Shown here one piece after another: positions 21,291 through 55,922 of a stretch of 64,000 nt of DNA. The notes under the pieces are model-generated. The model had not been told where the DNA came from, searched no databases, and worked only from the letters and a program-made list of their open reading frames with translations. Within the stretch, counting starts at the first letter, position 1. Each line of letters starts with the position of its first letter. A program made the position numbers and the translations under genes. The stretch comes from Patescibacteria group bacterium (GTDB taxonomy: Bacteria; Patescibacteriota; Minisyncoccia; CAIUEV01; JAHKAQ01): assembly GCA_034716235.1 (NCBI GenBank), contig JAYEHH010000032.1, forward strand, positions 370 to 64,369. Direction: 5' to 3'.

Positions 21291-21632
21291 TTTTCAATTC
21301 TCTAAAGTAATATAATCTCCGTAAATTAGCTAAAAACAAATTAATTGCGGTAAACGATCTATTAGTAATGCTTGGCTGAACGTGTTACCACGCTTACACC
21401 TACATCCTATCAACCTCGTCATCTTCGAGGAGATCTAAGCCTAATCTTGGGTTGGGCTTCGCGCTTATATGCTTTCAGCGCTTATCCACATCCGACTATA
21501 GCTACCCAGCAATGCCCTTGGTAGGGACAACTGGTACACCAGAGGTCGATTCATCCCGGTCCTCTCGTACTAGGGATGAGATCCCTCAAGCTTTCTCGCG
21601 CCTATGGAAGATAGGGACCAACCTGTTTTACA

Positions 21633-21664
<32 letters not shown>

Positions 21665-21679
21665 TTGGCGAACAGCCAA

Positions 21680-21726
<47 letters not shown>

Positions 21727-22364
21727 AGTAGCGAACAGCCTCGTCTATATGAGCTATCGGAGGCTACCACTCTGTTATCCCCGGGGTAACTTTTATCTGC
21801 TGAGCTTCCGCGATCCTACGATCCACGGTCGGATCACTAAATCCCGCTTTCGCGACTGCGCGACCTATAAGTCTTGCAGTAAAGCCGGCATCTGCTTTTG
21901 CGCTATCAGTCCGATTTCCATCCGGACCTAGCCGACCTTTGTGAACGACTCCGTTACAATTTGGGAGTCGAGCGCCCCACTCAAACTACCCACCAGACAC
22001 TGTTCCCGAGCTGGTGTTTAGTTACCTCTGGTAAATTTCACTGTTTCACATTTAATCAAGAAATCCCCAAAACATAGCTAAACATCAGCTCAAGGTTAGA
22101 ACTACACGATTCACAGGGTGGTATTTCACTGATGACTCCATCTATCCCAAAGGATAAATCTCAAAGTCTCCCACCTATACTGAGCAATAAATTGTATAGA
22201 TCAATGTCAAGCTGTAGTAAAGCTCCACGGGGTCTTTCCGTCTTTCCATAGGCAAACGGCATCTTTACCGCTACTGCAATTTCACCGGGTCCTTCGTTGA
22301 GACAGTCTCCAAGTCGTTACCCCATTCGTGCAGGTCTGAACTTACCAGACAAGGAAATTCGCTC

Positions 22365-22722
22365 TGTTTTGTTAATCTTTATGTCACCATAAAGCACGGA
22401 CTATATCTTTCCGCTAAATTTAAGTCAAAAAATTTAGGCGGATTCAGCGTTTAGTCTCTGAGGATTCTAAAAATCTTTTTTAGTCTTTCCTGCTGATTAT
22501 CTGGCACCTCGGATCTTTTCCGAGAATTACTGATAACTTTTTTACTTGGCATAGCTTTATAAAAATCTATGGAATAACTATACCATAGTAGTCTCAGATT
22601 TTCCAGATTTTCCAGCATATAGCTGAATGTTTTAGGACATCTTAATAATTTAAGATAGGCAGCGTTAATAATATAATTGTTCCAGTCCTTTTGGAATCTA
22701 AATATTAAATTCCAAAACCTTA
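22365..22722 (-). other. ~357-nt insertion in 23S between AAGGU and AGCGAAAUUCC (E. coli ~1917 region): candidate ORF-less group I intron or intervening sequence
   Basis: Core flanks align with E. coli 23S; the inserted sequence has no rRNA homology and contains internal repeats (cagattttccagattttccag) and hairpins. Confidence 0.5.
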
Positions 22723-22914
22723 GAACAATTATAGTTATTGCTGACGTTCACCGGGGCTTCAGAGATTGGCGTTAACCGCTCTCGTTAACCTTCCGGCACT
22801 GGTCAGGGGTCAGCCCCTATACATCCCCTTACGGGTTAGCAGGGACCTATGTTTTTGATAAACAGTCGCCCGGAGTCTTTAGCTGTGGCCGACGAATGTA
22901 CTGAATGGTGAATC

Positions 22915-23213
22915 CGAACTAGATAATTATCTGGTTCGGATTGTATGTGGGTTATTAATATTTTATTATGCTTTCTAACAAAGCGTTGCTAGGGTGCATA
23001 AAACGGTGACAATCGTCCAAAGTAGAAAGCCTATTAAAGGCATCTCTGCTAGGCCAATTGCCGTGCTCATCATCTTCTTTGTTCTTCCTTTCATATTGAT
23101 CCTCCTCCTCTAATTTCAATTTAAAAAACATAATTTACCCACACTTACCTTTTTTATTTTTTCTCCTTTCCTAAATCCATTTAGATTTCTTGGATTTAGA
23201 TTTTAAAGTTCAA
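22915..23213 (-). other. ~300-nt expansion of 23S helix 63 closed by a 15-bp inverted repeat (gtactgaatggtgaa / ttcaccattcagtac)
   Basis: Flanks align to E. coli 23S ~1700-1750; perfect inverted repeat at 22900-22915 and 23213-23229. Confidence 0.6.
22975..23094 (-). CDS. 39-aa hydrophobic peptide ORF (MKGRTKKMMSTAIGLAEMPLIGFLLWTIVTVLCTLATLC) inside the 23S helix-63 insertion, in rRNA sense, with GGAGGAGGA SD
   Basis: Manual translation of the minus strand: GGAGGAGGAtcaatATG...TAG. Basic N-terminus plus a single transmembrane-like segment, as in type I toxins. Confidence 0.3.
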   Translation of the reverse strand: MKGRTKKMMSTAIGLAEMPLIGFLLWTIVTVLCTLATLC

Positions 23214-24453
23214 TTCACCATTCAGTACACTGTCGGCAGGCCTTATCCCGAAGTTACGGCCGCTATTTTGCCGAGTTCCTTAACGAAGGTTCTCCCGTTC
23301 ACCTTGGGCTACTCGCCCTACCCACCTGTGTTGGTTTAAGTACGGATTAAACCTAAATATTTTCACAAAGCTTTTCCAGGAAGTCTATTCGCTCGAATCT
23401 GTTCCACTTGCGTTTCACATTTTTCCGCACCTTTTAAAAAGATGAAGAAACGTCAAACCATTAAGACGCTCAAGTTAGCTGACTTCGCACTTTGCTACAA
23501 CTTAGATTTAAGTCAAGGAATATTAACCTTGTGCCCATCGACTACGCTTTTCAGCCTCGCCTTAGGACCGACTAACCCTGGGCTGATTATCATCGCCCAG
23601 GAAACCTCAGGTTTTTGGTGGAAAGGAATCTAACCTTTCTTGCGGTTACTCATACCAACATTCTCTCTTCCATTAGCTCCACTAAAACTCACATTTTAGC
23701 TTCACAGCGCATGGAATGTTCTCCTACCCCGCCATACTCTAAAAAGAATATGACAGCCATAGTTTCGGTACTATGTTTGAGCCCCATTATATCTTCGGCG
23801 CGGAACGACTAGACTAGTGAGCTGTTACGCACTCTTTAAAGGAATGGCTGCTTCTAAGCCAACCTTCTAGCTGTTTAAGAAGTTCTACATCCTTTTCCAC
23901 TTAACATAGATTAGGGACCTTAACTAATGGTCTGGGCTGTTTCCCTTTCGTAAATGAAGCTTAGCCCCCACTTACTGACTCGTTAGACTTGTATATTGGA
24001 ATTCGGAGTTTGGTTGAGTGCCCTAGACAAAAGTCATGGATACTCATTCAGTGCTCTACCTCCAATACCAACTATCTAACGGCTATACCTAGATATATTT
24101 CGGAGAAAACCAGCTATCGCCGAGTTCGATTAGCATTTCACCTCTAACCACAGCTCATCCCAGCGTGTTGAACGGCGCTTGGGTGCGGACCTCCACCGCT
24201 TTTTAAGGCGGCTTCATCCTGGCCATGGCTAGCTCACTCGGCTTCGGGTCTGACCCTAACGACAGGGGGCGCCACTTAAGACTCGCTTTCGCTGCGGCTC
24301 TTCCGCCTAGACGGATTAACCAAGCCGTTAAAATCAACTCGTTGGTTCGTTCTGCAAAAAGCACGCGGTCACCGGCTCAAAAAAAACTTGAGCGGGCTCC
24401 CACTCGTTGTAAGCACACGGTTTCAGAAACTATTTCACTTCCCTTTCGGGATA

Positions 24454-24495
<42 letters not shown>

Positions 24496-25401
24496 AAAGT
24501 GTATTTAGTCTTACCGGGTTAGTACCGGCAAATTCACCTGGAATTTCTCTAGTTCCAGGCTACTCAAGATAAAATAACTCAGAGTGATTAATTGTTTTCG
24601 CCTACAGGACTTTTACCTTCTAAGGTAAGCCTTTCCAGGCATTTTTGGCTAACAACTAATGCTTTTTACTCTGCCAATACTAAAAGTTGTAAAAGCACAA
24701 TAAAATTATACTTTTACAATTTCAGTTCGGACGCTATTGAACTTATTACCCTCAGTAAAAACTGAGTTTGGACTTTTCCCCGTTCGCTCGCCGCTACTTA
24801 GGGAATAACTATTGTTGTTTTTTCCTTCGGCTACTAAGATGTTTCAATTCGCCGAGTATGCTTTTTACTCCTATGTATTCAGAGTAAAATTCTATTCAAA
24901 AATGAATAGAGGGTTTCCCCATTCGGAAATTCCCGGATCAAAGCTTGCTTGACAGCTCCCCGAGACTTTTCGCAGCCTGCTACGCCCTTCATCGCCACTT
25001 TGTACCAAGGCATCCACCATATGCTCTTATAACCACAATTTATTAGTGTTTTTAGCTAATTCACAAAGATTATTTGTAAATTAATTGCAATCACTTAAAT
25101 ACCATTTTGCCTAATAATTGTTTTTAACCACAATCTCCAAACAACTATTATTAAAATAAATTGTTAAAGTCCATTATGTGGCCTAAAAGGTAGTTTTTAA
25201 AAATAAAAACCGCTTTTCAAGCCGCTAATTCTTTAAAATAAATTAGACCCAAAAACTAGCCAAGGAACAGCTCTTAATAAATTCTCAATAAAATAATACT
25301 ATAAAAATTATTATAGCAATAAATAAGTTAGTGTCAACTGAATGTAAACCAACCTCTAATCTCTAAATTAATAAATAGACAATTCAGAGCTTATAATTTC
25401 T

Positions 25402-46525: not shown

Positions 46526-48343
46526 ATGCCAAATTATTTCGTCAATCAAAGAAATATTAGTGCGTTACTTCAAAACATTAAGGACGAAGATATTGTAATC
46601 CCAGAAATTCAGAGACCTTTTGTTTGGGAGAGTAAAAAAGTTCGTAATCTTATGGACTCATTGTATCAGGAATTTCCAATAGGTTATATTATTACATGGA
46701 AAAATCCAAATATAAGACTAAAAAATGGAAGAATGAGCGAGGGAAAACAAGTTATAATAGATGGACAACAAAGAATTACCGCTTTAATGGCTGCGATCTT
46801 GGGACGAGAAATTATAGACAAAGAGTATCAAAAAAAGAGGATTCGGATTTCCTTTAATCCATTGAAAGAAAAGTTTGAAACATTAACTCCTGTTATTGAA
46901 AAAAATAGTGAATGGATAAGCGATATTTCAGAATTTTTTAAAACTAGAAATAATATTTTTAATTTTACTGCTAATTTTTGTAAAAAAAATAATTTTACCG
47001 AAAAACAAAAAATCAAGACTCAGCAAAGTCTAACAAAATTACTAAACATGGAGGATAAGTTTATTGGAATTATTGAGCTTGATGCAAATTTAGATATTGA
47101 TGATGTAACGGAAATATTTGTTAGAATTAATGATGCTGGGACTCCCCTTTCACAAGCAGATTTTGCAATGAGTAAAATTGCCTCATACGAACCAACATCA
47201 GACCATTTGTTTGGAGTGAATTTAAGAAAGTCTATTGATTATTTTGCTCATCTATCTCAAACACCACATTTTCTTGAAGATATTGGAAGAAACGATAAAG
47301 AGTTTAGCCGAACAGAATATTTGCTAAAAATGAAATGGGCCGGGAAGGAATTGGATAATATATATAATCCAAACTATAAGGATATTTTAAGAGTAAGTTT
47401 CATTAAGGAATTTAATAGAGGGAAAATTAGCGATCTTGTGAAGCTTTTATCTGGACAAAATTTTAAAACAAGAAATTATGATCAAAAAATACAAGAGAAA
47501 TCATTCTTGGCTTTAAAAAATGGAGTCCTTGACTTTATAAATGAAAATCATTTTAAGAAATTCCTTATTATTTTACAATCAGCTGGAATTATTGATTCAA
47601 AACTTATTAATTCACAGAGCGTTCTAAATTTTGCCTATATTGTCTATTTAAAACTTAGAAAAGATGGAATGGCAAATAATTTAATTGGGAAATATACAAA
47701 AAAATGGCTTGTTCTTTCAATTTTGACTGAAAGATATTCAGCCTCACCAGAATCTACGATGGATAAGGATATTAAAGATATTAATAAATATGGAATTAAA
47801 AAAGTTATTGCAAAGATTGAAGAGGCGGACATGTCATCAACTTATTGGAATATTGGACTTGTACAAAATTTAAACAGGGCGATAATTTCAAGCCCATTTT
47901 TAAGCCTCTTTTTTATAGCACAGATATGCTCTAAGGATAAAGCTTTATTCTCCGAATCGGTTTTAATCGATCAACTCGTTAGCATAAAAGGAGACGTCCA
48001 TCATATTTTCCCCAAAAATTATCTTCAAAAAGCAGGGTTTGGAATAAGTAAATATAATCAAATTGCAAATTTTGTTTATTTACAACAAGAAGTAAATATA
48101 ACAATAGGAGATAAACCACCAGGACAATATTTTAGCCGAGCATTGAATCAATGTGATAATAAAACTTTGGATAGTGGAAGTATTGGAGAAATTACAGACA
48201 AGAAAAAATTGATAAAAAATTTAGAAATAAATTCTATCCCAACTGATATTTTTGAAATGGATATTACTAATTATGATGAATTTTTAGAAAAAAGACGGAA
48301 ATTAATGGCAAAGAAAATTGAAAAGTTTTATAAAAGTTTATAG
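46526..48343 (+). CDS. GmrSD-like type IV (modification-dependent) restriction endonuclease: N-terminal DUF262 (ParB-like NTPase) plus C-terminal DUF1524 (His-Me/HNH-like nuclease)
   Basis: PEIQRPFVW...IIDGQQRITAL (DGQQR hallmark of DUF262); C-terminal DVHHIFPKNY...N...N (DUF1524 signature); 605 aa. Confidence 0.75.
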   Translation: MPNYFVNQRNISALLQNIKDEDIVIPEIQRPFVWESKKVRNLMDSLYQEFPIGYIITWKNPNIRLKNGRMSEGKQVIIDGQQRITALMAAILGREIIDKEYQKKRIRISFNPLKEKFETLTPVIEKNSEWISDISEFFKTRNNIFNFTANFCKKNNFTEKQKIKTQQSLTKLLNMEDKFIGIIELDANLDIDDVTEIFVRINDAGTPLSQADFAMSKIASYEPTSDHLFGVNLRKSIDYFAHLSQTPHFLEDIGRNDKEFSRTEYLLKMKWAGKELDNIYNPNYKDILRVSFIKEFNRGKISDLVKLLSGQNFKTRNYDQKIQEKSFLALKNGVLDFINENHFKKFLIILQSAGIIDSKLINSQSVLNFAYIVYLKLRKDGMANNLIGKYTKKWLVLSILTERYSASPESTMDKDIKDINKYGIKKVIAKIEEADMSSTYWNIGLVQNLNRAIISSPFLSLFFIAQICSKDKALFSESVLIDQLVSIKGDVHHIFPKNYLQKAGFGISKYNQIANFVYLQQEVNITIGDKPPGQYFSRALNQCDNKTLDSGSIGEITDKKKLIKNLEINSIPTDIFEMDITNYDEFLEKRRKLMAKKIEKFYKSL

Positions 48344-48375: not shown

Positions 48376-48777
48376 TTACTCCTTATCAGGCAATCTATCA
48401 TCTTTTTTTCTTTGATAATAAGTATTCTTATTTAAACATCTGTTTATAATATTTTCCATGTGCCAATAAGTGTAATTGCCATATCTAAAATAAATCTGTT
48501 TTGTTTTGTAAAAATAATCCTCGTATCCTGACTGGTCAATGTAATTAGCAAGCTCTAAGTATAATTTGTTATCAACTTTTTCTTGGACAATATATTCATG
48601 GGGCCATGTTTTAGCATAAGTTTTTGCAGGCGTCCAATTAGAATTTTTAATAAATAATTTTAAATTATTGGGGAGTAGTACTCTATCAAACATCGCCTTT
48701 ATTTTTTTACTATGAAGAAATATTAAAACCTTTTTGATTGTAGCTATAGTATTGTTGATTACTTTAGTTTCATCCAT
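48376..48777 (-). CDS. Hypothetical aromatic-rich small protein, convergent with the GmrSD-like gene
   Basis: 133-aa ORF, no recognised motif. Confidence 0.35.
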   Translation of the reverse strand: MDETKVINNTIATIKKVLIFLHSKKIKAMFDRVLLPNNLKLFIKNSNWTPAKTYAKTWPHEYIVQEKVDNKLYLELANYIDQSGYEDYFYKTKQIYFRYGNYTYWHMENIINRCLNKNTYYQRKKDDRLPDKE

Positions 48778-49095: not shown

Positions 49096-52014
49096 ATGAG
49101 AGTTAATATCAAGGAAATCAGGAGAATAATTAAATCTGATGTTATTAAGCCTAGAATTGAAGAATATTTACAGAAAAGAAAAAGTGGAGACGAGCAGCAA
49201 TGGAACGAGGAATATAAATGGGATCCAAAAATATTGCCTGCAACACATAAGGAATTTATCAAGGAAAGAGACATTCTTAAAAAAATTGAAATTCTTCAAA
49301 AAAATAATCCAAACGAAGGATCCTTTGTGAGTTATATGGACTTGGACGATCTCAATAAATTTGCTAAGGAAAAAACAAAGCAAGCCACAAAGTTGATGGA
49401 AAACTTATTGAATGGAAAAAAGAATATTGCTAAACGCATTGATTATTTTAGGGATGAGACGAAAAAAGTGGATGAAAAAATTAAATTAGGAACACCCTTA
49501 TTTGGTTACATTATGGCGGTATTCAATTCCAGTAAATATCCAACTTATAAAAATTCAACCTTTATGGCTCTCAAAAAGCTCATTGGAAAAAGACAAGAAT
49601 GGAGTTCTATGAGTGTTGGCGAGAAATATCAAACATTTACTGACCTGTGCCATGAAATGGGCAAATTGCTGAAGCCAGAACTTGAAACTGTAAATATCAG
49701 AGGTATTGAGGTCAAGCCAGGAAGGACTGCTCTGGATGGTCAAGACTTTTTCTATATTCTTGAAGATCGTTATAATAGAGAGAGATATTTCCCCGAACTT
49801 GTTAAATTTCTTGAACAAGCCAAGGCAAGCAATCTTACAACAAAGCAATACCGAAAGGATTATATGAATTGTAAAGTGAGGATAAGTTTTGGAAAAGTAA
49901 GCTCTGCACAAACACCCTGGATTAGTTTTTTATCCGGTGACAATAAATTACAGAAGGGAATTTATCCAGTCTTTCTTTTTTATAAAAGTATAAATAAATT
50001 ATTTCTAGCATATGGTATAAGTGAAATAAGTGAACCCGAACAAATTTGGAACATTGTTGGAAAAGAAACAATTGAAGATTATTTTATTGAAAATTTCAAC
50101 TCGGAGCCAGAGAGATATGGCAGTTCTTATGTTTATAAAGTATACGATGTGAAAAACATTGATAATTTAAATCAAGAACAAATGGAAAATGACTTGAAAA
50201 ACATAATTAATGAATATAAAAAACAACTTGAAGAAACTCCAAAAATTCAATACTGGACAATTTCTCCGGGGGAAGATGCAAAGCACTGGGAGGAGTTCTA
50301 TCAAAAAGGGATCATTGGAGTCGGCTGGGATAAAACAAAAGATCTCTTACAATATAAAAATAAAAAAGAAATTCAAAAGGTTGCGAAAAACTTATTTGGA
50401 TTAAAAACTAATGCCAGCAATACTGCCCAAGCTTGTTTGGATTTTTCTAGAACAATGAGAATTGGGGATATTTTAATTGTCAAAAAGGGAATTCATGAAT
50501 TGGTCGGCTATGGAAAGGTAACTTCAGATTATATTTATGATGCAAGGAGGAAGACATATAAACACATACGAAATGTGATGTGGATTAAAAAGGGAAATTG
50601 GAAGATAGATAAAGAGATTATTCATCCTGCATTAAAAACTTTAACTAACATAACTCCGTATGAAGGTTATGCCCAAGAATTATTGGGCATAATGGACGAA
50701 AGTAATATTGATGGAAAAAATTACTGGTGGATTAATGCAAATCCAAAAATTTGGAATTTAACAGAGGCGGAAGTCGGTTCCAAACAAATATATACAAGCC
50801 ATAATGAGGCCAAGAATCCCAGAAGAATTTATAGTTATTTTAAAGAGGTTAAGCCGGGCGACATTATGTTTGGATATATAACAAGTCCTGACAAACAAAT
50901 TACTTCAATATGCAAAATAACCAAAGGGTTATATGAGAACAAAGAGGGGGAAGTGATTGAATTTGAAAAAACTGAGACTTTACAAAATCCAATTTTGTGG
51001 AATGAATTGAAAAATGAAGAAAGTTTGAAAAATTGCGAACCAATTAAGAACAATCAAGGAAGTTTGTTTAAAATAAGCAAAGAAGAATATGAAACCATTA
51101 GATATTTGATTGATGAGAAAAATATTTTCACGAAAGAAAAAATTGAAAAATATATAAAAAAGGATGCTCTAGACAAATTATTTATTTCAGAAAATGAATT
51201 TGATAATATAGCCCAAAATATTGAAAGAAACAAAAATATCATTCTGCAAGGCCCTCCCGGAGTTGGCAAAACTTTTCTTGCAAAAAGGTTGGCTTATTAT
51301 TTGATTGGATACAAAGACGTAAACAAGGTACAATCTATCCAATTTCATCAATCATATTCATATGAAGATTTCATGCAAGGTTACAGGCCCAATGAAAAAG
51401 GAAAATTTGATCTTGTTAATGGAATATTTTTCAGATTTTGTCAGAAAGCTAAAAATGATCCAAACAATAAGTATTTCTTCTTGATAGATGAAATAAATAG
51501 AGGAAATCTGAGCAAAATTTTTGGTGAATTAATGATGCTTATTGAAAAAGATAAACGGGGTAAAGATTTTGCTATACCTTTAACATATTCCCAAGATGAC
51601 AGAGAAACATTTTATGTGCCAGAAAATGTTCATTTGATTGGGACTATGAACACAGCTGATAAATCACTTGCGATGGTAGACTATGCTTTGCGAAGAAGAT
51701 TTAATTTTATTTTTCTGAAACCAAAATTTAATAACAGCTTTAGTTCATTCCTAGAAAATATGGGAGTTAAAAAGATTATTATTAAAGCGATAGTTGAAAA
51801 AATAAGCAAACTAAATGAGATGATAATTAATGATGATAATAATCTTGGAAAAGGATATCAAATTGGTCATAGTTTTTTCTGTCCTCAGAGAAAAAGTAAA
51901 TATGACGAAGAATGGTTTAAGAATATTGTCAAATACGAAATTGAACCATTGCTCGAGGAGTATTGGTTTGATAGTGAGAAAAAATTTAATGAAGCGAAGA
52001 ATTTATTAAACTGA
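49096..52014 (+). CDS. mcrB: McrB-like GTP-specific AAA+ motor with a long N-terminal extension: DUF3578-like (MrcB-N) module plus two EVE/PUA-like modules
   Basis: AAA+/GTPase motifs GPPGVGKTF, FFLIDEINRGN, GTMNTADKS (NTAD signature of McrB), RRRF. N-terminal VRISFGKVSSAQTPWISFLSGDNKLQKGIYPVFLFY fits the DUF3578 pattern. An EVE-like segment runs YWWINANPKIW...GDIMFGYITSPDKQITSICKI...; an earlier similar module runs YWTISPGEDAKHWEEF...GDILIVKKG. Confidence 0.8.
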   Translation: MRVNIKEIRRIIKSDVIKPRIEEYLQKRKSGDEQQWNEEYKWDPKILPATHKEFIKERDILKKIEILQKNNPNEGSFVSYMDLDDLNKFAKEKTKQATKLMENLLNGKKNIAKRIDYFRDETKKVDEKIKLGTPLFGYIMAVFNSSKYPTYKNSTFMALKKLIGKRQEWSSMSVGEKYQTFTDLCHEMGKLLKPELETVNIRGIEVKPGRTALDGQDFFYILEDRYNRERYFPELVKFLEQAKASNLTTKQYRKDYMNCKVRISFGKVSSAQTPWISFLSGDNKLQKGIYPVFLFYKSINKLFLAYGISEISEPEQIWNIVGKETIEDYFIENFNSEPERYGSSYVYKVYDVKNIDNLNQEQMENDLKNIINEYKKQLEETPKIQYWTISPGEDAKHWEEFYQKGIIGVGWDKTKDLLQYKNKKEIQKVAKNLFGLKTNASNTAQACLDFSRTMRIGDILIVKKGIHELVGYGKVTSDYIYDARRKTYKHIRNVMWIKKGNWKIDKEIIHPALKTLTNITPYEGYAQELLGIMDESNIDGKNYWWINANPKIWNLTEAEVGSKQIYTSHNEAKNPRRIYSYFKEVKPGDIMFGYITSPDKQITSICKITKGLYENKEGEVIEFEKTETLQNPILWNELKNEESLKNCEPIKNNQGSLFKISKEEYETIRYLIDEKNIFTKEKIEKYIKKDALDKLFISENEFDNIAQNIERNKNIILQGPPGVGKTFLAKRLAYYLIGYKDVNKVQSIQFHQSYSYEDFMQGYRPNEKGKFDLVNGIFFRFCQKAKNDPNNKYFFLIDEINRGNLSKIFGELMMLIEKDKRGKDFAIPLTYSQDDRETFYVPENVHLIGTMNTADKSLAMVDYALRRRFNFIFLKPKFNNSFSSFLENMGVKKIIIKAIVEKISKLNEMIINDDNNLGKGYQIGHSFFCPQRKSKYDEEWFKNIVKYEIEPLLEEYWFDSEKKFNEAKNLLN

Positions 52015-52019
52015 TTTTT

Positions 52020-53057
52020 ATGGAGATACCTATAATAAATATATATTACCTACTTTGTTATGCTTGGGATAAACTTGAAGAAAAAGATGTTGTTAACGTA
52101 AAAGAAGAAGATCACACTAAGTTACTTGATCTTTTTGCAAAGATATTAATTAACGGAATGAATCATCTAATCAGGAAAGGATTGGACAGAAATTACATTG
52201 ATATCAAAGAAGATTCAAAGAGAATTAAGGGAAAGATTAATTTCAATGAAACACTGAAAAGGAACTTGTTGGTACGATGTGAAATTAGTTGCGAATTCGA
52301 CGATTTTAGTTACAACATTCTTCACAACAGAATTATTAAAACAGTGATTGGAGGATTAGTTAGAAATGATGAGGTGGATCAGGAGCTGAGGGACGAATTG
52401 AATAAAATCTATCGATTATTGAAAGAGATTGATGAGATAAGGCTTTCCTCAAAAATATTTAATGCTGTAAAATTAAACAGAAATAATTACTTTTATGATT
52501 TTCTGATCAAGGTATGTAGGCTGATATATGAAAATTATTTAATCACGGAAGAAACGGGCAAGGGGAAATTTAGAGATTTTATAAGAGACGAAGTAAAAAT
52601 GAGAATGCTCTTCGAAGATTTTGTTAGGAATTTTTATAGAAAAGAACAAAACGAATTTTCTGTAACAAGGGAATTGATTGCATGGAATGTTAAGGCTGAG
52701 AATGATGAAGATATGAGTTATATGCCGAGAATGGAAACCGATATATCGCTAAAATCAAAAAGTAAAAAAATAATAGTTGATACAAAATATTATAAAGAGG
52801 CCATTAAGGGTCAATATAAGAATAAAGAAAAGTTAATATCCAATAATTTATATCAAATGTTTGCCTACATAAATAATATAGAAAACAAAGGAGGTCTAAA
52901 TAAAAAATGTACTGGAATATTACTTTACCCAACAGTTAAAAAAGATTTGGATTTAAAATATAAAATACCAAATCATAACTTACAAATTAAAACAATAAAT
53001 CTAAATCAAGAATGGAAAAAAATTCATAAAGACTTATTAAGTGTAATTATGACTTGA
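52020..53057 (+). CDS. mcrC: McrC-like PD-(D/E)xK nuclease partner of McrB
   Basis: Starts 5 nt after the mcrB stop; McrC signature D-x-K in IIVDTKYYK with upstream acidic residues and QMFAY. Confidence 0.7.
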   Translation: MEIPIINIYYLLCYAWDKLEEKDVVNVKEEDHTKLLDLFAKILINGMNHLIRKGLDRNYIDIKEDSKRIKGKINFNETLKRNLLVRCEISCEFDDFSYNILHNRIIKTVIGGLVRNDEVDQELRDELNKIYRLLKEIDEIRLSSKIFNAVKLNRNNYFYDFLIKVCRLIYENYLITEETGKGKFRDFIRDEVKMRMLFEDFVRNFYRKEQNEFSVTRELIAWNVKAENDEDMSYMPRMETDISLKSKSKKIIVDTKYYKEAIKGQYKNKEKLISNNLYQMFAYINNIENKGGLNKKCTGILLYPTVKKDLDLKYKIPNHNLQIKTINLNQEWKKIHKDLLSVIMT

Positions 53058-53131: not shown

Positions 53132-54349
53132 ATGCAACAATTTTCTCATTCAAAATTACAAACCTATGAAAGATGTCCCCTGCAATATAAGCTCCAATAC
53201 CTCACCAATCTAAAGCCGGAGCAGGAAGAGACAATAGAAGCCTTTGTGGGTAGCCGGGTCCATGAGACTCTGGAACTTCTTTATCGTGATCTACTGCGAA
53301 CAAAACTAAATTCTTTAGCTGATCTTTTAAAGTTCTATGATAAAATTTGGAGAGTAAACTGGAGCAATGACATAGTTATCAATAATAAAGAATTTAAAAA
53401 GAAACATTACTTTGATCTTGGAAAAAAATGTATTAAAAATTATTATGAAAAATATAGCCCTTTTGATCAGGATCAAACAATTGGAATTGAGAAGAGGATT
53501 AATTTACAATGGGGAGACATTGGAATAGTGGGATACATTGACCGTTTAGCTAGAGACAGCCAGGGTATTTATTCTATCCATGATTATAAAACGGGTGCCA
53601 TCATGGAACAGAAGTACGCAGATCAAGATCGTCAGCTAGCCTTGTATTCAATTGCCGTTAAGGAAAACTTTAGAGAGGCCAAAGAGGTAAGGTTAATTTG
53701 GCATTTTGTAGCTTATGGCGAAGATGTTATCTCGAAACGGACAAATAAGGAATTGGCTAAGCTAAAAAATGAAATGCTGTCCCTTATTGAAGAAATTAAT
53801 CTTGCAGAAAAAGAAGATAATTTTCCAGCCAAAGAAACTAAATGTGAATGGTGCGGATATTGGCAGTATTGCCCAAAGAAAAAGCATTTATTCAAAACAG
53901 AAAAACTTCCAAAAAATAAATACCTACAAGATAGTGGAGTAAAACTAGCAAAAAAGTATATTAATTTATCACAACAAAGAACTGTCATAAACAAACGAGC
54001 TAAAACTAAGGGGGAAATAATTAAGCAAGAAATGCTAAAGATTCAAGAAGCTATCCTAAAATATACCCAGAAACATAAAATAGATGTCTTGGCGGGAGAA
54101 AAAATGCTTGTAGCTATTAATAAGAGTAAGAACTATACCTTCCCTACAAAAACTACTGACATTGAAAAATACACTGAATTGGAAAATTTATTGAAAAAAA
54201 GTAAGTACTGGAACGGTGTATCTTCCGTCAATGCCCAAAAAGTTAGTCAATTATTGGAAGATGATGGGATTGACAGTAGATTAAAGCAGAAAATTATTGC
54301 CCTTGCTCCACTTGAAGAATCTACTAACTTATCAATCAGAAAAAAGTAA
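53132..54349 (+). CDS. Cas4/RecB-like PD-(D/E)xK nuclease with 4-Cys cluster and ~150-aa C-terminal extension
   Basis: N-terminal SKLQTYERCPLQYKLQY, GYIDRL, IHDYKTG (D..D-x-K), QLALYSIA (QxxxY), CEWCGYWQYC. Confidence 0.7.
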   Translation: MQQFSHSKLQTYERCPLQYKLQYLTNLKPEQEETIEAFVGSRVHETLELLYRDLLRTKLNSLADLLKFYDKIWRVNWSNDIVINNKEFKKKHYFDLGKKCIKNYYEKYSPFDQDQTIGIEKRINLQWGDIGIVGYIDRLARDSQGIYSIHDYKTGAIMEQKYADQDRQLALYSIAVKENFREAKEVRLIWHFVAYGEDVISKRTNKELAKLKNEMLSLIEEINLAEKEDNFPAKETKCEWCGYWQYCPKKKHLFKTEKLPKNKYLQDSGVKLAKKYINLSQQRTVINKRAKTKGEIIKQEMLKIQEAILKYTQKHKIDVLAGEKMLVAINKSKNYTFPTKTTDIEKYTELENLLKKSKYWNGVSSVNAQKVSQLLEDDGIDSRLKQKIIALAPLEESTNLSIRKK

Positions 54350-54910
54350 ATGGAGCTTCTAGAGAAAACCATCAAGCATATAGAAAAAAAGAAAAGGGAT
54401 AATTCTAATAAAAAAGAGCTATTGGCAAACAACAGACATCCTAAATCTGCCCATTATTATAAAAAGGAATGGTCATTTATTGAGTTTGTACCAGCTAGAG
54501 AAAATATTACCTATCAGTTACAGTATTTAGAGTATATGACCAATTTATACAATGACTACCAAATGTATTTAACGATTGAATCTTTACATTGCAAGAACAT
54601 GATGATTACCATTGCCTCAATAATGGAATGTGCCCTCTATGACCTCTTGTATCAGTTAGCCAGAAAAAGGTCAGATATTGGTTTTGATGAAAGAGAAGAT
54701 TTTTTAGCAATGATTGATTTAGGGTTTCGGGGAGGTTTACTTAATGAACAAATGAAAAATTTGCTACATGAGCTTCGGAAAGTTAGAAATTTTGTGCATA
54801 TTTCTAATTTGGAGCATAAAGAATACGAAGCTTATGATATTGAGCAAGTAAACAACTATATTATACTTTTAGATAATTTTAAGGATAGAGTTAGGGAGAA
54901 GATTAAATGA
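54350..54910 (+). CDS. Hypothetical protein translationally coupled (TAAATG) to the upstream nuclease; possible HEPN-like Rx4-6H motif
   Basis: C-terminal LHELRKVRNFVHI fits R-x6-H; the start codon abuts the upstream stop. Confidence 0.3.
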   Translation: MELLEKTIKHIEKKKRDNSNKKELLANNRHPKSAHYYKKEWSFIEFVPARENITYQLQYLEYMTNLYNDYQMYLTIESLHCKNMMITIASIMECALYDLLYQLARKRSDIGFDEREDFLAMIDLGFRGGLLNEQMKNLLHELRKVRNFVHISNLEHKEYEAYDIEQVNNYIILLDNFKDRVREKIK

Positions 54911-55031: not shown

Positions 55032-55922
55032 ATGCCTCCAAAACCTAAAAAAATAGATGTTGATGTTAATGATTTTTTCAGAAGAATTGTTAGATTAAAA
55101 AAGAAAAAGAAATTTGCAAATTTCTTAAAATTTATTAAACGAGTACCAAAACAATCCCCTTTAAATGACTCTCTCGTATTCATTCAAAATTGTAATTGTT
55201 TTTATTATGCAACAGCTAAGCAATGGAAGAATAAATTTGGAAGAAAAGTAAAAGATGATGCGCAACCATTGATCGTATTAGTTCCATTTGGTCCCGTTAT
55301 GTTCGTATATGATATTAAGGATACCAAGGGAAAATCTCTAGATAAAAAAAATTTGTTTTGGTGGAAAGAAAAAGAAGGATATTTTCACGAAAGTATTTAT
55401 TTGAACACAGCCAATAACTGTAAGAATGTTGGGATAGATTATCGTATTGGTAAAAAAGAACAGTATATATTTAAAGAGGGTCTACAGACTTTCGGATATG
55501 CTGGAAAAAATATAAATAATAACTTACGTAAAATTGAACTACATCCTAAATATCAAAATGGAATCAATATAAAAGAAACTTATGGAGTATTATGCCATGA
55601 GTTGGCTCATCATTTGCTTGGGCATTTGGGAGAAATAAAAATTGAGATACCAGTGCAGATGAGTTTATTTTCATCTAAGGTCAACGTCCGTCACAAAAAA
55701 ATAGCTCCGAGTGGTAGAGAGTCTATTGATGATAATATTAAAGAGCTTGAAGCCGAATTAACTGCTTGGATAGTATTTTCCTGTTGGGGTATGGAAAAAA
55801 ACTCAGAAGCATACATGGCAAATTGGCTGATAGATAGCAATGATGCAAAAGAAATAAACTATCCCTTAGTTTTTAAGGTAGCTGGAACGATTAAGCGAAT
55901 GGCGCTCGGTAAAATTGCGTAA
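55032..55922 (+). CDS. ImmA/IrrE-type (M78-like) HExxH zinc metallopeptidase with N-terminal region weakly resembling the ArdC-N ssDNA-binding domain
   Basis: CHELAHHLLGH (HExxH...H); N-terminal FYYATAKQWKNKFGRKVKDDAQPLIVL resembles the ArdC-N TFKQA..GG.VRKGEKG..VV consensus. Confidence 0.5.
   Translation: MPPKPKKIDVDVNDFFRRIVRLKKKKKFANFLKFIKRVPKQSPLNDSLVFIQNCNCFYYATAKQWKNKFGRKVKDDAQPLIVLVPFGPVMFVYDIKDTKGKSLDKKNLFWWKEKEGYFHESIYLNTANNCKNVGIDYRIGKKEQYIFKEGLQTFGYAGKNINNNLRKIELHPKYQNGINIKETYGVLCHELAHHLLGHLGEIKIEIPVQMSLFSSKVNVRHKKIAPSGRESIDDNIKELEAELTAWIVFSCWGMEKNSEAYMANWLIDSNDAKEINYPLVFKVAGTIKRMALGKIA

Follow-up and report, generated by a model that had tools for sequence, protein, structure and literature searches.

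The McrBC locus

We analysed 64,000 nucleotides of DNA from a Patescibacteria group bacterium (GenBank assembly GCA_034716235.1, contig JAYEHH010000032.1, positions 370 to 64,369; hereafter the window) and focus here on two plus-strand genes that encode the McrB and McrC subunits of a restriction system, in which McrB carries four modules, termed N1, ADAM, MID and EVE, ahead of its GTPase domain. The first gene, mcrB (49096..52014), was assigned from its open reading frame (ORF) and domain matches and encodes a 972-amino-acid (aa) McrB-family GTPase subunit; its frame is open across all 972 codons. The second gene, mcrC (52020..53057), encodes a 345-aa McrC protein with a PD-(D/E)xK nuclease domain, and its ATG follows the mcrB stop codon after a 5-nucleotide (nt) spacer of sequence TTTTT. 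Both products are identical to deposited proteins: McrB to NCBI MEA3273506.1 (‘MAG: DUF3578 domain-containing protein [Patescibacteria group bacterium]’, where MAG stands for metagenome-assembled genome) and McrC to MEA3273507.1. The identical McrB protein is on record from two contigs under two NCBI accessions.

The C-terminal part of McrB (residues 681-972; 51136..52014) contains each of the elements that define the AAA+ domain of this family, that is, Walker A (GPPGVGKT, residues 719-726; 51250-51273), Walker B (LIDEINR, residues 796-802; 51481-51501), an NxxD signature (NTAD, residues 852-855; 51649-51660) and arginine fingers (RRRF, residues 866-869; 51691-51702). Pfam places AAA_5 over residues 714-869 (E 5.8e-24), and phmmer aligns residues 680-965 with residues 162-449 of Escherichia coli McrB (6ut6; E 3.9e-121). 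The NCBIfam McrB model PRK11331 scores 413.7 bits, which is under its whole-protein cutoff of 637, and the best match covers profile positions 160-449 only. An earlier reading of the bare sequence (hereafter the original prediction) had called this region a textbook McrB GTPase followed 5 nt downstream by an McrC with a DxK motif, and both statements agree with our coordinates and alignments. McrC matches PF10117 (E 1.6e-42), exceeds the NCBIfam equivalog cutoff (361.3 versus 338 bits) and aligns over its full length (residues 3-342) with E. coli McrC (6hz4_M; E 7e-63). The PD-(D/E)xK residues (D...D-x-K) are kept in the motifs METDI (residues 238-242; 52731-52745) and VDTKYY (residues 253-258; 52776-52793), so that the features expected of an McrB partner, namely an McrB-activating N-terminal domain, a PD-(D/E)xK nuclease and a position adjacent to mcrB, are all present. 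In a published census of McrBC systems an NxD GTPase motif marks the teal and yellow clades (PMC11090510); the NTAD signature therefore places the window GTPase in the classical NxxD group and not in the NxD clades. Judged by its sequence, the locus is an intact McrBC of the E. coli K-12 branch.

The N-terminal modules of McrB

The ADAM module (also DUF3578 or MrcB_N; residues 232-384; 49789..50247) is predicted to be a 5-methylcytosine (5mC)-flipping domain of the E. coli McrB type, as the original prediction had surmised from a DUF3578-like segment. The Pfam model PF12102 matches residues 239-376 with 27.3 bits in the context of the whole protein (cutoff 25) and with 40.5 bits (E 2.9e-10) when the segment is searched alone, and phmmer aligns the module with residues 6-150 of the E. 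coli McrB N-domain (3ssc; E 4.6e-24). The module contains the motifs TPWISFL (residues 273-279) and GIYPVFLFY (residues 288-296). The roles of individual residues in the E. coli domain, including those of the 5mC pocket and of the phosphate clamp Ser38, have been described (Sukackaite et al. 2012, PMC3424535), and S264, W275, Y290, L294, Y341 and I308 of the window protein correspond to the E. coli pocket and clamp residues S38, W49, Y64, L68, Y117 and I82, respectively.

The module next to the GTPase (residues 541-680; 50716..51135) scores as a genuine Pfam EVE domain: PF01878 matches residues 542-669 with 40.8 bits (E 2.8e-10, cutoff 23), which means that all three domain models named as a check on the original prediction (DUF3578, EVE and AAA_5) find their match in Pfam. 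A profile built from homologues of the module also matches EVE proteins of solved structure (2gbs, E 1.9e-11; 1zce, E 3.2e-10; 2ar1, E 9.7e-10; 2eve, E 2.9e-4), and Y543, P550, G588, D589, Q654, G655 and F658 are invariant in the family.

The MID module (residues 385-540; 50248..50715), which lies between ADAM and EVE, is a predicted modified-base reader with an EVE/YTH-like fold of the PUA superfamily. It has no match in the local Pfam-A library, even at E 10; precomputed annotation tables label it PF28530/DUF8426, and a homologue search with a MID profile, which returned seven proteins, mostly fragmentary, confirmed this label. No sequence match to MID was obtained in the PDB by phmmer or by profile search, and BLASTP detected no similarity between MID and the EVE module of the same protein. 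Only 3 of 32 MID family members gave a weak Pfam EVE match (best E 0.017), and hhalign of MID against the EVE module returned a marginal probability of 45% over 33 columns, located at a shared ‘GD’ hairpin. Because these direct sequence tests are null or marginal, the assignment of MID as EVE/YTH-like rests on a structure model, which AlphaFold2 built from a 32-sequence alignment with a predicted local distance difference test score (pLDDT) of 90.7 and a predicted template modelling score of 0.85. This model matches the fold of solved EVE/YTH/ASCH domains (PUA superfamily), and it is nearer to PH1033/UPF0310, to eukaryotic YTH domains and to the EVE domain of VcaM4I than to the N-domains of the McrB proteins of Staphylothermus marinus and Thermococcus gammatolerans; the scores against ASCH (7.8) and against these two PUA-type N-domains (7.0 and 5.8, respectively) were all under the threshold. 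According to the model, then, MID is EVE/YTH-like by fold and lies outside Pfam EVE. Where the original prediction had seen two EVE/PUA-like segments, the claim thus stands for residues 541-680 as a Pfam EVE domain, and for residues 385-540 it survives as a modelled fold and not as a Pfam EVE match. MID also conserves several aromatics of the kind typical for base cages (W387, W398, F450, Y479, W496 and W502), and its sequence matches the N-terminal part of PDC-S02, a candidate defence protein in PADLOC (E 9e-15). Among the seven mostly fragmentary proteins of the MID-profile search, no fusion of MID to a non-McrB effector was seen.

The presence of YTH/EVE-like readers raises the question of whether the system could be directed at RNA, since such readers have been proposed to bind modified RNA in the CoCoNuT-type relatives of McrBC. 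We regard this as very improbable and rejected the CoCoNuT assignment: the GTPase signature is NTAD, of the classical NxxD branch and not NxD, McrC is an equivalog of the E. coli protein, the ADAM DNA reader is present, and the domains of CoCoNuT systems (HEPN, CSD and others) were not found by Pfam, coiled-coils not having been specifically predicted.

The first 231 residues of McrB (N1; 49096..49788) form a further, all-alpha domain that the original prediction had overlooked; of its claim that the N-terminus consists of three stacked readers, the three reader-type domains hold and the count of modules does not, as N1 is a fourth domain. The model of N1 is confident (pLDDT 93.1) and nearly all alpha-helical. 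We found no match to N1 in Pfam, no sequence match in the PDB and no significant structural match. Using an exhaustive hidden Markov model search of 1.84 billion representative proteins, we collected 325 members of the N1 family at E<=1e-3 and 108 at E<=1e-10, and of nine distant members that were sampled all nine are fused to AAA_5/McrB-type domains, five of them also with EVE. N1 therefore represents a small unannotated domain family that is fused to McrB-type motors in each sampled member. Comparison of profiles with E. coli EndoIII (the query sequence of which was checked against 2abk) gave a probability of 1.9%, and a link of N1 to HhH-GPD glycosylases is only a lead. We nevertheless consider, as an improbable proposal, that N1 could be a fourth, so far unrecognised sensor that flips bases and stems from an HhH-GPD glycosylase fold that has lost its activity, such that McrB would carry four structurally unrelated readers and the hexameric motor would integrate their states of occupancy. 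If this were so, the protein would be a combinatorial reader of an ‘epigenetic code’ that tells hypermodified phage DNA from host DNA, and not a simple either/or detector.

Related McrB proteins and selection on the modules

To describe how the modules are distributed, we mapped the five segments of McrB onto 121 homologues and tallied the resulting architectures; as the homologues were gathered by similarity to the query, the counts are biased, and as the tally covers only these reader families they are also lower bounds. Three or all four modules were found in 15 of the 121 homologues, two in 25 and one in 76. Single-module architectures comprised ADAM-GTPase (30 proteins), N1-GTPase (20) and MID-GTPase (17), and mixed orders included N1-ADAM, ADAM-MID, MID-ADAM, EVE-MID, MID-EVE, ADAM-MID-EVE, ADAM-EVE-MID and EVE-ADAM-MID. 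Apart from the window protein, only P0002, an 82%-identical protein from a Joint Genome Institute (JGI) metagenome, has the full N1-ADAM-MID-EVE order. The order ADAM-MID-EVE is kept in P0002-P0008, and in P0004-P0008 a ScoMcrA_N domain (PF26345) stands where N1 stands in the window protein. DUF8425 (PF28527) occurs on other related McrB proteins, and many related McrBs (P0018-type, for example at L004 2637-5249) have an unassigned segment of ~210 aa N-terminal to N1. The repertoire of N-terminal modules on the McrB proteins of this clade thus exceeds the four found in the window protein. In a Balneola MAG, an EVE-MID-GTPase gene is followed by McrC, and a single-protein scan of species genomes returned only one locus. 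Overall, the window McrB elaborates on a familiar anti-phage defence in a way that is unusual, yet not unique.

Substitution rates between the window gene and its P0002 counterpart on contig L001 were then estimated by the method of Nei and Gojobori. The ratio of non-synonymous to synonymous substitution rates (dN/dS) was 0.17 overall, and it was 0.167 for N1 (dS 0.73), 0.183 for ADAM (dS 1.41), 0.149 for MID (dS 0.54), 0.112 for EVE (dS 0.29), 0.115 for the GTPase (dS 0.33) and 0.109 for McrC (dS 0.54), which reveals purifying selection on all modules in this pair of sequences. The dS values vary about five-fold along mcrB, from 1.41 in ADAM to 0.29-0.33 in EVE and the GTPase, and because of this variation we suggest that the ADAM reader segment was swapped by recombination between close lineages. 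Given that the sequence comes from a MAG, the same five-fold variation could be taken to mean that mcrB is an assembly chimera or a decaying pseudogene; this possibility is close to negligible, and the chimera was rejected, as the 972-codon frame is uninterrupted, the identical protein occurs on two contigs, the 82%-identical protein is encoded, with matching domain order and gene neighbourhood, on an independent JGI metagenome contig, and the overall dN/dS is that of a gene under constraint.

A model for target recognition

In the model established for E. coli McrBC, McrB forms GTP-bound hexamers that are activated by McrC, the readers anchor the complex on modified DNA, and cleavage follows from translocation (PMC7680126, PMC11090510). 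By analogy, the subunits of the window McrB would assemble into a GTP-bound hexamer to which McrC binds and which it activates, and the complex would then translocate along DNA, in a presumably GTP-dependent manner, with the PD-(D/E)xK site of McrC making the cut. Each McrB chain would present three base-flipping readers in series (ADAM/DUF3578, DUF8426 and EVE) behind a helical cap formed by N1, and any one reader on its cognate modified base would be able to tether the motor, that is, the readers would act by an OR logic. A single McrBC could in this way cover several phage DNA modifications, with ADAM and EVE predicted to cover cytosines of the 5mC and 5-hydroxymethylcytosine type and DUF8426 possibly covering N6-methyladenine or another modification. 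This agrees with the broadened or combinatorial recognition of modified bases that the original prediction had suggested. We prefer the OR logic because other McrB proteins carry each of the four modules without the remaining three and because dual specificity is known from Type IV enzymes with several readers, such as ScoMcrA. The computation establishes the domain composition, the intact motifs of motor and nuclease, the operon layout, the purifying selection, the recurrence of the modules and the retention, by each of the three reader-type domains, of the conserved residues of its family, whereas hexamer assembly, GTP dependence, cleavage of DNA, the ligands of the readers and the OR logic are inferred. 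The module composition and the identity of the system as McrBC are almost certain; that the locus encodes a functional Type IV McrBC in which the three readers serve as alternative recruiters that broaden the target range seems to us probable, and the OR-type mechanism of broadened recognition, taken by itself, is slightly favoured.

Several points weigh against this proposal. The intercalating Tyr41 of E. coli is replaced by Lys267 in the window ADAM module, and D84 and T85 are replaced by E310 and I311, respectively; given these changes, the specificity of ADAM may be weakened or may differ from that of the E. coli domain, although the Tyr41 position is variable among McrB-N homologues and may tune the sequence context (PMC3424535). 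The estimate of purifying selection, furthermore, derives from a single pair of sequences.

The same pocket changes (Y41K, D84E and T85I) could weaken binding at single sites, which would suit a cooperative arrangement in which the three readers bind closely spaced modified bases by an AND or avidity principle, so that only densely modified or hypermodified phage DNA is attacked and sparsely methylated host or commensal DNA is spared. The short linkers, together with the fixed ADAM-MID-EVE order kept from P0002 to P0008, point in this direction, and a hexamer would present 18 readers, from which avidity effects are to be expected. However, related McrB proteins have the modules singly or differently ordered (such as ADAM-EVE-MID, EVE-MID and MID-ADAM), which argues against a fixed geometry, and we consider a cooperative mechanism unlikely.

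A further explanation, to which we likewise give little credence, is that only one of the modules is a working DNA reader and that the remaining ones (N1 above all, DUF8426 perhaps) are regulators, which could autoinhibit the motor or nuclease, govern oligomerisation or act as decoys for, or sensors of, the anti-restriction proteins of phages. This would fit N1, which has neither a reader-like fold nor a significant structural match, and it has a precedent in VcaM4I, the nuclease of which is autoinhibited by its EVE domain and linker (PMC7897488). Against it, MID and N1 are each the sole one of the four modules on other McrB proteins (17 and 20 proteins, respectively), at a position that is normally occupied by the specificity domain; the conserved aromatics of MID are typical for base cages; and purifying selection is similar across all modules. 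The use of the three readers as alternative recruiters is the interpretation that we prefer, and the cooperative and regulatory explanations are the alternatives to be weighed against it.

Comparison with known systems

The window system resembles E. coli K-12 McrBC (EcoKMcrBC; 3ssc, 6ut6 and 6hz4) in the ADAM 5mC pocket, the NTAD/RRRF GTPase, the McrC equivalog and the position of mcrB directly 5′ of mcrC. It differs in that the 231-aa N1 module precedes ADAM and in that ~300 aa (DUF8426 and EVE) separate ADAM from the GTPase, whereas E. coli McrB has a short linker at this place, as inferred from alignments in which the N-domain ends at about residue 150 and the GTPase starts at residue 162; it also has Lys in place of Tyr41, and its host is a Patescibacteria MAG. 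EVE readers N-terminal to McrB GTPases are known from EVE-McrB fusions (Bell et al. 2020, PMC7641849), which often bear additional domains, and the same study presents ADAM as the replacement of EVE in E. coli McrB; the window McrB, in contrast, joins EVE with an E. coli-type ADAM, DUF8426 and N1. The McrB proteins of T. gammatolerans (YTH-like N-domain) and S. marinus (PUA-like N-domain) have a single reader each, unlike the window McrB, and the EVE-HNH endonuclease VcaM4I (6yex) differs in that it consists of a single chain, does not depend on NTP, lacks a motor and couples one reader to an HNH nuclease. Type IV enzymes of the ScoMcrA type have a single HNH nuclease that bears both a sulfur-binding and an SRA domain, and they restrict more than one kind of modification; they share with the window McrB the presence of different reader families on one Type IV enzyme and differ in having an HNH effector, other reader families and no translocating GTPase.

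McrBC, ADAM and EVE are thus already known, as are fusions of EVE to McrB that often include further domains (PMC7641849), and the window protein itself has been deposited. In the literature searched, neither the combination of an E. coli-type ADAM with two PUA-type readers on one McrB nor the EVE/YTH-like nature of DUF8426 nor the N1 family has been described. Since the specificity of McrBC is normally ascribed to a single N-terminal reader, the window McrB would offer a ready-made system in which to study the way several modification signals are combined by a nuclease that translocates, and DUF8426 and N1 are candidate new sensors of modified bases that might find use as epigenetic reagents. 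Modular specificity domains on McrB are an established principle, with which the window McrB agrees, and its practical significance is moderate; a specialist would probably see in it a neat natural experiment and not a surprise.

Genomic surroundings

The mcrBC genes lie in a small defence island of low GC content (29-32% over 46-56 kb versus ~34-38% in the flanks) in the chromosome of the Patescibacteria MAG, bordered by a TsaD gene and a class I aminoacyl-tRNA synthetase gene. The island begins with a 605-aa GmrSD-family (DUF262) protein (46526..48343, plus strand), which matches GmrSD_N (PF03235, E 4.8e-33) and PADLOC HEC-05 (E 1e-29) and is a putative second Type IV, that is, modification-dependent, enzyme of the island; we count it as a neighbour of mcrBC. 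Between this gene and mcrB lies a 133-aa ORF on the minus strand (48376-48777), for which neither Pfam nor PADLOC yields a family match. Downstream of mcrC, the plus strand encodes a 405-aa Cas4-like PD-(D/E)XK protein (PF12705, E 1.7e-32), with a CxxC...C motif around residue 240, and then a 186-aa protein (53132..54910 for both). These two genes also lie 3′ of mcrC on the contig of the 82%-identical orthologue (L001 4210-5988) and are not found beside the McrBC of more distant relatives, for which reason we left them out of the system. The island ends with a plus-strand 296-aa ORF (55032-55922) that contains a zinc-metallopeptidase-like HELAHHLLGH motif (HExxH) and has a weak SprT-like match (E 7.8e-4). 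A scan for promoters and terminators gave 62 promoter-like sites against 52.5 expected, which is uninformative in such AT-rich DNA.

Elsewhere in the window lie housekeeping genes, namely those for ParAB, RelA/SpoT, RecO, two more class I aminoacyl-tRNA synthetases, ATP synthase, SecA, SecDF, UvrA and ClpB; there was no methyltransferase among the large window ORFs scanned, and the window contains no tRNA genes. At ~38000-40000 gene orientation turns from mainly minus to plus strand, and the cumulative GC skew has its minimum in the same 38-40 kb bin, between a divergent 117-aa ORF and uvrA. A replication origin or terminus would fit this pattern, but we saw no dnaA gene. The 23S rRNA gene (21341-25040, minus strand) is 3700 nt long compared to the 2925 positions of its model, and contains a group I intron at 22377-22717 (Rfam RF00028, 64.8 bits) as well as ~430 further inserted bases. 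Insertions in rRNA are typical of the candidate phyla radiation (CPR)/Patescibacteria.

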